From the NCBI GenBank assembly GCA_000092065.1, contig CP000594.1: DNA of 64,000 nucleotides; one strand, written 5' to 3'. This DNA is from Ostreococcus lucimarinus. Lineage: Eukaryota. A program made the position numbers and the translations under genes. Under the pieces are notes generated by a model, which worked only from the letters and a program-made list of their open reading frames with translations, did not search any database and was not told the origin of the DNA. Position 1 is the stretch's first letter; each line of letters opens with the position of its first letter. Shown here piece after piece: positions 15,283 through 57,400 of this stretch.

Positions 15283-16544
15283 TTAATCGAAGCTCAACAC
15301 GCATCGTAAGCACTTGCCTTCGTGCAACAGCTCGAACGCTTCGTTGATTTGATCAAACTTCATGCGGTGCGTGATGTATCTGTCGAGTTTCGTGTTTCCG
15401 CCCATGTACTTTTCGACCAGTTTCGGCACGGCGATGCGGCTCTTGTACCCGCCGAAAGCGGTACCTTTCCACGTGCGACCGGTGACGAGTTGGAATGGTC
15501 TGGTTGAGATTTCCGTGCCCGCGGCGGCGACGCCGACGATGACGGAAGTCCCCCACCCCTTGCGGCAGCATTCCAAAGCGCTTCGCATGACGTTGACGTT
15601 TCCGACGCATTCGAACGAATAATCCACTCCACCGTCCGTCATCTCCGCGATGACAGTTTGTGAATTTTTATCGCCAAACTTTGTCGGGTTCACAAAATCC
15701 GTGGCGCCGAACTCGCGCGCCACGGCTTCCTTTTCGTCGTTGGTGTCGACAGCGATGATGCGCGTCGCGCCCGCCTCCACAGCCGCCTCCACGCACGCCA
15801 ATCCGACGGCGCCCAGACCAAACACCGCCACGGAGCTCCCCTCTTCGACCCGCGCCGTGTTATGCACCGCCCCCCACCCCGTGCTCACGCCGCATCCCAG
15901 CAGGCACACCTTATCCAAACGGCGCCTCGTCGTTCCCCACCTGCGCCACCGCCACCTCGTGCACCACCGTGTACTCGGAAAACGTCGACGTTCCCATGAA
16001 GTGAAAAATCTCCGACCCGTCGCTCGCGAGCGTAAATCTCGGCTTCCCGTCGTTCTTCATCACCCCCGCGCCCGTGTACGCCCGCACCGCCTGACACAGG
16101 TTCGATTTCGGATGCACGCAGTGCGCGCACGGCTCCTTCGCGATGTCCGCGCAGTACGCCTGATAGCACGGAATCACCCGATCGCCCGCTTTACACGACG
16201 TCACGCCCTCGCCGACGGATTCCACCGTCCCCGCCGCCTCGTGTCCCAGGATGCACGGAAACTTCCCCTCCGAGTCGTGTCCGCCGAGCTGTTCGACGCG
16301 TCGGCGTCAGTCCGAGACGATCGACGGCGCGTCCGGGTCGAGTCGGCACGCGCGCGCGCGCGCGATTCGCGCGGCGAGCGCGCACCGTGTACGCATCCGT
16401 GTGACACAGCGCGTTGTACGCGATTTTAATTCGCACTTCGCCCGCCTGCGGCGGCGCGACGACGACGTCGACGATTCGCAGCGGCTCGCGCGGCGCGAAC
16501 GCCACCGCCGCCTTGCACGCGATCGGCTCGCCCGCGCGCGACAT
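15283..16544 (-). CDS. Class III alcohol dehydrogenase / S-(hydroxymethyl)glutathione dehydrogenase. Structure: exon 16544..16386, a 97-nt intron, then 16288..15286. Reading through needs a +1 correction at the T3 run 15917-15919.
   Basis: [17 protein letters not shown]...[16 protein letters not shown] / intron / [30 protein letters not shown]...[11 protein letters not shown]...[16 protein letters not shown]...[12 protein letters not shown]...[12 protein letters not shown] all align to human ADH5. The ORF track splits the gene into three frames (16191..16544, 15911..16225, 15283..15918). Confidence 0.9.
16289..16385 (-). other. Spliceosomal intron of 97 nt in the class III ADH gene: GTGCGC...CGAACAG, with an internal (CG)8 run and an ACTGAC branch-like motif
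   Basis: Removing it joins ...HTDAYT|[17 protein letters not shown], matching human [23 protein letters not shown] exactly in length. Without removal the ORF continues into Arg-rich nonsense. Confidence 0.8.
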
Positions 16545-16678
16545 GCGCTCGCGAGGCGATCAGTGGCGACGCGCGAACGCGAAGGGGACGTTTTTCGCGA
16601 CGACGATTCGACGACGACGGCGCGGGAAACGACGAGGCGTCGCGACGGACGGCGCGCGGAGTTACAAGCGAGCGTCCG

Positions 16679-54400: not shown

Positions 54401-57400
54401 TTTTCTCCTTCCGGGCCGTTTGAGCAAGTGCGTCTTAATCTAGGCGCTTCACACGTTGTTCGTCACAAGACTCACGATTTAGTCTTTGACAGTCAAAAGG
54501 GGCATCTTTTGAGCTATGTTTCGTGCGAAAACGAAACAGATTCTGATATATTCGTTGATGTTCATCCAGCTATGAAGAGAGAACTCACGACTTCTAATTT
54601 GGACATATCTCTGAGTGAGAAGTATGAGTCGCCGAGCGATGTCGCGGATATAGAAGTATTTGAATCGGAACGATATTACCCGTTGAGAGGATGGCGTGCT
54701 CCAAAAGACGCTATCGTAAAAGCTCGTTATAGCAGGCATAAAAGTGGACGAGGTTCGCAAAAACGGTTTCCAGACGTCAAAGCTCCAAAAGGTTTCAGAT
54801 TTGAAGGACCGTGGGAGCTCGACAAACCACCAAATCTGGTGAATGACGACGGTTGGGCGTACGGTGCTATTTGGCTAAGGAAGTGGCCACCGCCTCGTGG
54901 ATCAGACAAAAGTAAAGGTCGTGCAACCCGTCGCCGACGATGGTTTCGTCGTGTCGTTCGATTGAAATCAGCTGAAGAAATTGAATCGCGCGTTTCCCTT
55001 CATAACATGAAGCGAGATTTCATCGAAGATTGGCACGGCACGTTGGCGGTACACGGACGTCTTACGCTACCTTCTTGTTCACGAACCGAGTCCTACATGT
55101 TGGCGTTACGCACGGGGGCTGACGTCGCATCAATTACCGCTCCGTCGTTTACCGAGAGAGATGACGCGCTGGATATTCGTGACGTGTTATCAGAGCAAGG
55201 CAACTGTGCGCTTGCTTACAACAACCTGCACGATCACTTTCTTTTGGTCAAAGAAGAATTGTCGAATGATGTGCAAAGTAGCGCGATAGGTGCTATTCCA
55301 GGCGTCAAGATTCGTGTCGTTGCCCCTGTTCACGTTGTCTCATTGATGGATTGTCCGTCGCAAGTTGTTTTGTACGCCAATGGCGAAGAAAGAATTGCCA
55401 TGCATCTTGCCGCGAACGAAACGAAACGTATCACGGCGATCGATGCAAACTGTGATACAATAGAGGTGCTCGTGTCTTTGTTCGAAGATTATCTCAGCCT
55501 TAGTAACGACAGGCCGCTGCGTCTAGATGTCACCCCGGCTGGAAGTCCACCGGCGCCACAGGTAAACTGGTTGAACATCAAAGGCTATCCGTATGTGGTT
55601 TCTATGCTGTTGATGGAGACGTGTAGAACTAGAATGGCGGGTGATAAATTCAACGATGATCCTTCGCAGCATCTCTTGAGTCTGACGTATCGCAATGTGC
55701 TGATGGTTACAAATGCATCACCGATCGACATTAAGTGTTTGGCGTGGGTCGCTGGCACAAGTACGACAAACGCGCACATAGATGCATACGTTGGGGTACC
55801 CAAAGGCGAGTCGCAACCTGCCATGTTTCTGAAATCGAGTGCGAAAACCCTCGCCAAAGTTTCGAGCAAAGAATTTGTGCTCGGTTTTTGTATCGATTCG
55901 TCTCCAGTACTAGTGAAAATTTCACCAAGTTCTGAGCCCGTGATGTTTACGCTTATGACAGCAAGTGGGGACGAACTTGCCTTTCAATGTTCCGTAGTAT
56001 TATGGGAGGGTCAAAACACCAACGCCGCGACATGGCCAACGCTTGAAGTTGTTTTACAACCCGTGCTCGTGGCGATCAACTTGACTCGAATTCCTCTCGC
56101 GATTCGCTCAAACACTATGGAACACAAGATACTCGAGCCAGGTTCATATCCCACGCCGTTTTCTTTGGATATTAAGTCTTCGAAAAGCGTAGACGAAGTT
56201 GAAGCCGTGCTTAATCAAGCCGCGATTCAAATAGCGGATATGTCGTGTCATTCGGAAGGAAAAGATATACTTTGGAGTTCGCCGCTGCAGAATTTGGTGC
56301 GCTATTCTGGAGCGATGTGGAGCATCCCACAAGGTGCCTCCCCCTTGGCGGATGAAATTAATGCATTTAGAAGACTTGGAGGTATCGACGAGTCTGGCGA
56401 AAACGTAAATTTCAAGGCACCTATCATCGTTCAGTTTCTTGTCGAGCGCGGTGAGCACGGTTGCTTCAGGGTCTTTTTTAGGGGGGGCGACGGAGCATCT
56501 CTGCAGAAGGCGCCAATCATGATCAAAAACCATTTGCACGAACCTTTACTCATTCGACAAGTGAAAGCGAACGACTTTGAGGACGTAGAAAAGAAGTCGG
56601 TGCAAAAGTCCACCGTGCGACTACTGCAAGGTATTAAGAAAGCCTCACACGGCGTAGGACAGTCTTTTGCAATTCGCCCGTTCTCAGCGATATCTTGGGC
56701 GTGGAGCGTCCCAGGTATTCCTATGAGATTGGACAACTTGAAAAAACAGGAGCTCGAGGCAAACGCCGCGGAGCTCGCATTTCGAAAGCGGAAATTTTTG
56801 GAGATATCGAACAATACAGGGGATCACGTCATCATAGAGATAAACGCGTTCAGCTCGCGATTCAAGGGTTTCATGCACCTCGGCGACATGCAATTTGGAG
56901 AACTAGGCAAGCGCACGTTACACGCAACGATTATTGGTGAATGGCGTGACGCATCGTTCGTGATCTTCGTGGTTGATAAAACGATAACGTTTGACAACTT
57001 TTCTTTCACGACTGAAATGACGAATCAAGCGAAAGCATTGACGTTGTACGCGCGGCAGCAAGAAACGCACATCTCTGTCAATTTGGCTGGCTTCTCCGTA
57101 ACAATCATCGATCGCCTCCGCGACTCATTCGTCGAGTTATTCCATCTCACGATCGACGACGTGATGATCAGGCACGGAATCAACTTGAATCAACAGCAGT
57201 TCTGTCTATAGTTATCTCAGAATTGGTGCACTGCAGATAGATTTTAGCACGCATGACGCAAGCTATCCAGTCTTCGTTTGGCACGACCCGGCGGACGGGC
57301 ACTTGCTTGAAGCGTACGCTACTTTGAGTATGAATTCTCATATCGGTGGTGACTCGATCGATGTTTATCACGTCCAACTAACGACAACGAAGAAAGGCCT

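Follow-up and report, generated by a model that had tools for sequence, protein, structure and literature searches.

The 64,000-nucleotide stretch of Ostreococcus lucimarinus DNA analyzed here (contig CP000594.1 of assembly GCA_000092065.1; this whole stretch is 'the window' below) holds a single class of spliceosomal intron, the canonical type of the Mamiellales that has already been described for this species. A first-pass annotation, made from the sequence alone, had proposed a dual population in which canonical introns are joined by AT-richer micro-introns in two genes, ULK4 and VPS13, whose reading frames change within the window. The frame changes are really there, and the second class is absent: what breaks the frames is single extra bases peculiar to the window, while in independent copies each gene is one open reading frame (ORF) and the residues assigned to the 'introns' are conserved. 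Very probably, then, there is one canonical intron class here, ULK4 and VPS13 are intronless, and the stray bases most likely reflect errors in this copy. It is the two extra bases in ULK4 and the four in VPS13 that break frames otherwise intact.

Five canonical introns are established in the window (a slash marks the donor splice site, and branch distances run from the branch A to the 3′ splice site).

16289-16385, minus strand: intron of ADH3 (class III alcohol dehydrogenase), 97 nt, 76% GC, donor ACG/GTGCGC, acceptor ACAG, branch GGACTGACG at 18 nt.
23038-23242, minus strand: intron of ARL8, 205 nt, phase 1, 70% GC, donor TCG/GTGCGT, acceptor GCAG, branch GGACTGACG at 30 nt.
23431-23621, plus strand: intron of PCC1, 191 nt, donor GAC/GTGCGT, acceptor ACAG, branch CGACTGACG at 24 nt; missing from the first-pass annotation.
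28190-28362, plus strand: intron of a 3-repeat MYB gene, 173 nt in the window and 171 nt in all other copies, 53% GC, donor AAG/GTGCGA, branch in the other copies TGACTGACG at 30 nt.
33010-33114, plus strand: intron of SND1 (Tudor-SN), 105 nt, phase 0, with an in-frame TGA, 67% GC, donor GGG/GTGCGT, acceptor GCAG, branch AAACTGACC at 30 nt.

These introns are 97-205 nt long and, MYB excepted, have a GC content of 0.66-0.76. All five begin with GTGCG followed by T, C or A, end in (C/A)AG, and so have GT...AG boundaries, and carry the branch motif (G/A)ACTGAC(G/C), which for MYB is intact in 6/6 other copies. Branch A and 3′ splice site are 18-30 nt apart in the confirmed introns; for two candidates described below, both unverified, the figures are 26 and 37 nt. 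The 8-mer GACTGACG has 12 matches in the window against 3.4 expected, a number reached in none of 100 shuffles. The looser pattern GTGCG..CTGAC..AG is not enriched (6 matches, 9 expected) and as a chance test does not discriminate.

Removal from transcripts is seen for ADH3, ARL8, PCC1 and MYB in contigs L011-L019, which lack introns and elsewhere follow the genomic sequence. In ADH3 exactly 97 nt are absent from four Logan contigs (L016-L019), and the spliced product, once a stray base at 15917 is deleted, equals XP_001421423 exactly. For ARL8, L012-L015 each lack exactly the 205-nt segment, and the spliced product of 186 amino acids (aa) is XP_001421426 exactly; L012 also goes from 23431 straight to 23622 in PCC1. 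L011 aligns to MYB with exactly 173 nt absent, and the 375-aa spliced product is the one called on that Logan contig, the match being to Logan only and to no annotated protein of strain CCE9901. The SND1 intron is established from protein match and collinearity: the spliced 918-aa product equals XP_001421245 exactly and is collinear with human SND1 (4qmg), continuous over the junction.

Positions 1-20 of L019 are GTATCAACGCAGAGTACGGG, the SMART template-switching oligo, and L013-L015, from three different samples, share a common 5′ end 2 nt before the ARL8 ATG. These two features point to a complementary DNA (cDNA) origin, and the shared end points as well to a very short ARL8 5′ untranslated region. 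Intron presence/absence polymorphism was considered as the source of the intron-less contigs and is less parsimonious, because of the oligo and the common 5′ ends, and because contigs of one run miss several introns that more than six genomic contigs keep.

For these introns much of the first-pass annotation stands. Its GT..AG intervals for ADH3, MYB and SND1 are correct to the nucleotide, and the printed sequence bears out that the four introns it named all start with GTGCG. Its ARL8 interval (23078-23242, 165 nt) has the right donor end and an acceptor 40 nt off: no AG stands at position 23078, a point upstream of the GACTGACG at 23066-23073, and 23038-23242 is the interval demanded by the frame and by the conserved GLQNAGKT motif. 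A GC content above 65%, which it ascribed to all four, holds for ADH3, ARL8 and SND1 and fails for MYB. The CTGAC upstream of the acceptor is likewise found in those three and is missing from the window's MYB intron, where a window-only extra G at 28330 converts GACTGACG to GACTGGACG and leaves no exact CTGAC. The MYB intron looked atypical because that stray G destroys its branch motif; both it and a second insertion inside the intron, at 28202, are absent in 6/6 contigs. PCC1, whose start codon is probably near 23405, and ARL8 are divergent, with start codons about 70 nt apart.

The signature itself is established for the species, as is its contrast with the introns of chromosome 2 (PMC2483917, PMC2367439, PMC3491373, PMC3879977). 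Irimia & Roy (2008) found ACTGAC in 87% of introns outside chromosome 2 confirmed by expressed sequence tags in this strain, and in about 5% of those on chromosome 2 (PMC2483917). Verhelst et al. (2013) gave an AG/GTGCGT donor with NCTGAC for Micromonas (PMC3879977), and that paper cites GACTGACG for Ostreococcus. Introns of this kind would be excised by the ordinary U2-type spliceosome.

The case against a second class is most direct in ULK4, where two bases found in the window only are concerned.

25288 (T) and 25328 (G), plus strand: single-base insertions in ULK4 giving two frame shifts and flanking the start of the proposed 47-nt micro-intron at 25307-25353.

Both bases are absent in 6/6 metagenome contigs and in the cDNA-like L011 and L012. 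ULK4 is one 1270-aa ORF in the six independent same-species metagenome contigs and in L011, and L012 carries the ORF to its contig end (1269 aa); deleting both bases from the window restores the same 1270-aa ORF. L011 and L012 span 25307-25353 and retain the segment. Nothing is spliced there, because these contigs differ from the window in that region by two single-base gaps only. The frame change in ULK4 is fully explained by the two insertions, and 25307-25353 is coding.

In VPS13 the same argument runs over a much longer gene.

45431-58739, plus strand: VPS13, an intronless ORF of 4,434 codons once G 49973, C 52385, G 53560 and G 57187 are deleted.
50005-50053, plus strand: proposed 49-nt micro-intron; coding, LSKVRPNVKVENPIRWGS in the downstream frame, with VRxxVxVxNPIxWG conserved in 8 orthologues.
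53631-53724, plus strand: proposed 94-nt intron; coding, KLQVESPPLIVCRTNDMVKQWWTRDHQQSKS, with PPLIVCRTND.VK.WW conserved down to 41% overall identity.
57211-57247, plus strand: proposed 37-nt micro-intron; coding, YSYLRIGALQIDFS, with G.LQIDF conserved in 8 orthologues.

The window splits VPS13 into five open frames, and each of the four transitions needs one base (modulo 3) removed; each insertion lies 7-71 nt upstream of the stop that closes the upstream frame. A protein search with the spliced model of the first-pass annotation as query gave relatives in which the gene is uninterrupted: seven ORFs from environmental assemblies (P0031-P0035, P0037 and P0038) of 4,396-4,510 aa. P0031 (4,510 aa) is near-identical to the window's VPS13, P0032 (4,495 aa) has about 89% identity, and the five others (4,396-4,481 aa) have 41-49%; an annotated O. 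tauri protein has 47%. The contig of P0031, L004, is 99.7% identical in DNA to window positions 45114-64000; what separates the two over VPS13 is an in-frame indel of 3 nt, some two dozen substitutions and the four single insertions in the window. Both P0031 and P0032 read through all three proposed introns in the downstream frame. Read against these orthologous sequences, the three are conserved coding sequence and VPS13 is intronless. As an observation apart, the protein is fast-evolving, as the 41-49% identities indicate.

The proposal that this evidence displaces is of introns of 37-94 nt, AT-richer and with GTAA or GTTA donors, that resemble those in the low-GC part (BOC1) of the big outlier chromosome and whose splicing restores the ULK4 and VPS13 frames. 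What can be said for it is that GT..AG strings of the right length modulo 3 are present at all four sites (25307-25353, 50005-50053, 53631-53724 and 57211-57247), that the organism does have such introns on chromosome 2, and that the VPS13 body is low in GC. Yet the ULK4 segment is retained in cDNA-like contigs, independent assemblies have one ORF across the four sites where the window differs by an inserted base upstream of each, conservation of the encoded residues extends down to 41% identity, and for the frame change near 52385 no candidate intron had been offered. Nor are the four strings more than chance would provide, because each VPS13 junction offers 15-47 frame-restoring GT..AG spans of 20-150 nt; the overlap of the candidates' GTAA with a stop codon follows, by construction, from how they were picked. 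The four candidates are 47, 49, 94 and 37 nt long with GC contents of 0.60, 0.47, 0.41 and 0.38, between flanks of 0.41-0.61. Although they had been described as AT-richer, only 57211-57247 is clearly below both flanks, the other three (of four) showing no clear drop. Introns of the BOC1 type, for which a length of 40-65 nt, and below 75 nt, was taken, are excised, short and markedly lower in GC than their flanks; neither excision nor that combination of shortness and low GC is found here. That the candidates are introns is accordingly extremely improbable. The alternative that the first-pass annotation had itself set against its proposal, further one-nucleotide frame errors, is what the ULK4 and VPS13 sites turn out to hold.

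The extra bases are not confined to these two genes. At least 13 one-base insertions are found in the window only, at 15917, 20004, 25288, 25328, 28202, 28330, 49973, 52385, 53560, 57187, 59893, 61250 and 62586, in a comparison with 1-9 independent contigs per site in which the seven from 49973 through 62586 were set against one contig, L004. Their density is about 1 per 4 kb of compared sequence, and 11/13 extend an existing run of a base. Also window-only are a deletion of one base (8377) and, in Nramp, a nonsense substitution (6912). Together these changes break ADH3, an ABC1 kinase gene, ULK4, VPS13, Nramp and an RRP12-like gene at 60.8-64 kb; the insertions at 59893, 61250 and 62586 affect genes at 59.9-62.6 kb. 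One of the insertions lies in ADH3.

15917, minus strand: frameshift insertion in ADH3 exon 2, absent in 6/6 metagenome contigs and in 9/9 with the cDNA-like contigs added.

The annotated CCE9901 proteins ABO99716 (ADH3, 387 aa) and ABO99718 (ABC1, 397 aa) read through 15917 and 20004, respectively, and it is for this reason that an error of the copy is favored over a feature of the strain. We infer that the extra bases most likely have no biological meaning and are errors of this copy, whether they arose in sequencing, in assembly or by later corruption. CCE9901 has a published genome that is reportedly finished.

Substitutions peculiar to the window have an unusual spectrum of their own, about 11 of some 49 being C<->G transversions; examples of window-only substitutions are at 3533, 9839, 12016, 16916, 17328, 23602, 26920, 30165, 31404 and 36927. 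Two Logan contigs, matching the window over 6.4 and 9.7 kb, differ from it at the last of these positions only (C vs G).

Were the insertions real mutations of CCE9901, then VPS13, ULK4, ADH3, the ABC1 kinase gene and others would be frameshifted pseudogenes of the strain. The window does otherwise match CCE9901 proteins exactly, the S-formylglutathione hydrolase product (14338-15228) being ABO99532/XP_001421239 of that strain. Three ORFs in all were looked up by exact sequence, and of these the helicase product clusters with ABO99528. Extension of base runs by 11 of 13 insertions is, moreover, what slippage mutations do. Against such an origin, the annotated ADH3 and ABC1 proteins of CCE9901 are intact over the insertion sites, and 13 insertions to one deletion, spread over essential genes and an intron, are unlike the outcome of selection. 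The strain or a near-clone has also been sequenced independently (two contigs near-identical over 6-10 kb, which cover no insertion site). Frameshifted products are absent from the protein collection as well, which speaks against the micro-introns too: neither VPS13 ORF D in its frameshifted form (1217 aa) nor ULK4 as truncated (508 aa) has an exact match there, where the products of neighboring genes are indexed in more than 1000 blocks. Strain-specific pseudogenes are on this evidence improbable, and errors in the copy remain the preferred source of the extra bases.

Several identical CCE9901 proteins have two accessions each, namely ABO99532/ABO99567 (14338-15228), ABO99719/ABO99749 (22568-23333) and ABO99538/ABO99572 (32926-35790), which suggests a block duplicated in the deposited assembly. 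Chromosome 21 is reportedly a fusion product of segments duplicated from chromosomes 9 and 13 (PMC2367439).

Programmed +1 ribosomal frameshifting in VPS13 was considered as well. All four VPS13 transitions are +1, and two of the upstream frames end GAG TAA A (GAGTAAA), recalling stop-codon-associated +1 shifting. Conservation, though, is wanting: eight orthologues and the conspecific copies are single-frame and have no shift site. One of the extra bases, moreover, precedes its stop by 7 nt and the other three precede theirs by 22 to 71 nt, and like insertions are found in non-coding DNA too (28202 and 28330). The chance that recoding is at work here is practically nil, and single extra bases in the copy account for the VPS13 transitions as they do for those of ULK4.

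Certain points weigh against the account given here and need to be kept in mind. Apart from L019, the intron-less contigs are assigned to cDNA from their sequences. No RNA-derived contig covers the VPS13 junctions, and the spliced SND1 junction has no match in metagenome and metatranscriptome contigs of the Joint Genome Institute (JGI), whether by exact 35-mer or by codon-degenerate pattern, a result that is uninformative. The corrected VPS13 (4,434 aa) and ULK4 (1270 aa) have no exact match in the protein collection either, the annotated CCE9901 models being unrecovered. The probable placement of the window on a non-outlier chromosome relies on the 708,927-bp size of the record, per-chromosome gene counts and late accession order.

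Beyond the established introns, the window has three candidates of the canonical type, the first resting on sequence and frames and the second on sequence.

8192-8414, plus strand: candidate intron upstream of a DIRP ORF, donor AAG/GTGCGA, acceptor ACAG, branch AGACTGACG at 26 nt; its removal would restore the frame (2 to 0).
30654-30827, plus strand: candidate intron upstream of the ORF at 31057-32790, donor TTG/GTGCGC, acceptor ATAG, branch CGACTGACG at 37 nt.
About 30881 to 31029, 31041 or 31050, plus strand: candidate intron with a possible GTGGGT donor and GACTGACG at 30990.

The second GACTGACG, at 30990, suggests that a further intron may lie just downstream of the 30654-30827 candidate.

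O. lucimarinus is, as the first-pass annotation rightly guessed, of the kind whose genomes have low-GC outlier regions, being a Mamiellales alga. Atypical small introns have been reported for its chromosome 2, with 489 predicted genes, out of 21 chromosomes (PMC2367439). BOC1 introns, which lie in the low-GC portion of the big outlier chromosome, are characterized as small and AT-rich in PMC3491373, PMC2367439 and PMC3879977, which cite Derelle (2006) and Palenik (2007). We infer that the window is probably on a standard chromosome and not on the outlier chromosome 2; it would then be a gene-dense segment of a non-outlier CCE9901 chromosome. Its GC content is 55-74% throughout except at 46-58.5 kb, where it is 46-50%. 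The low-GC tract does not run over hundreds of kb; it is the body of one gene, 12.5 kb long, between flanks of 60-74% GC. A location of the window inside the BOC1 region was considered and rejected as improbable, the low-GC tract being one gene long and the record size and accession order making chromosome 2 unlikely.

That gene is VPS13, and its composition is the only item here that may merit separate attention. Over its body (about 46000-58500) the GC content is 46-50%, and that at third codon positions (GC3) is 0.49-0.57 against 0.60-0.81 in neighboring genes; the first 570 nt of the coding sequence have a GC3 of 0.88, and the low GC of the body is mainly a third-position effect. Syntenic VPS13 orthologues in three other Ostreococcus-like lineages, including O. 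tauri, have bodies of 49-51% GC between flanks of 58-61%.

L022, 10001-23281: low-GC tract of a VPS13 orthologue.
L023, about 7000-19423: low-GC tract of a VPS13 orthologue.
L024, 5694-19139: low-GC tract of a VPS13 orthologue.

In O. tauri the annotated VPS13 model (3140 aa) appears to be short by about 3 kb at the 5′ end, the missing coding sequence having the same low GC. The island is free of the introns and transposons that mark known outlier regions, and because the gene is intronless it is not BOC-like in structure. It is possible, and put forward only tentatively, that the low GC of VPS13 marks a compositional island the size of one gene, conserved and set in a standard chromosome, due to a local process independent of BOC/SOC. 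Base composition would in that case be set locally, at the scale of single genes, in these genomes, and candidate causes, if the island is real, are exclusion from GC-biased gene conversion and a gene-specific chromatin or replication state. No description of a low-GC VPS13 or of gene-sized GC islands in Ostreococcus was found in the literature searched.

For the reading of this DNA the consequences are straightforward. The real introns follow the signature published for the species in 2008, and the proposed second class comes from single-base frame errors having been read as introns. Frame breaks in this copy need to be checked against independent copies before a biological reading is given to them, and a short frame-repairing GT..AG span, being always available by chance, is no evidence for an intron.

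The window compares with known systems as follows. Set beside BOC1 introns, the ULK4 and VPS13 candidates are similar in length (37-49 nt), are without the branch motif and lie in lower-GC sequence; unlike BOC1 introns they are retained (ULK4), encode conserved residues (VPS13), have no consistent drop in GC and are, by the placement proposed above, off the outlier chromosome. Another likeness is to the pseudo-frameshifts that arise from indel errors of assembly and are bridged by spurious tiny introns. Here as there, the insertions are of one base and mostly extend runs, each ORF that is hit is intact in every independent copy, and a short GT..AG span is always available. What would not be expected of such errors is their density, about 1 per 4 kb compared being surprising for a finished genome, if the window is a faithful copy.

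With the canonical introns of Ostreococcus and the Mamiellophyceae found outside chromosome 2 (PMC2483917, PMC3879977), those of the window share the GT-AG boundaries, the /GTGCG(T) donor, GACTGACG, a length of about 100-200 nt and the small number per gene. The canonical introns sit on standard chromosomes, where the window too is probably placed. Micromonas is reported to have 43-52 nt between branch A and 3′ splice site, where the confirmed introns here have 18-30 nt and the two unverified ones 26-37 nt. The MYB intron departs from the class in its GC content of only 53%; otherwise there is no difference of substance.

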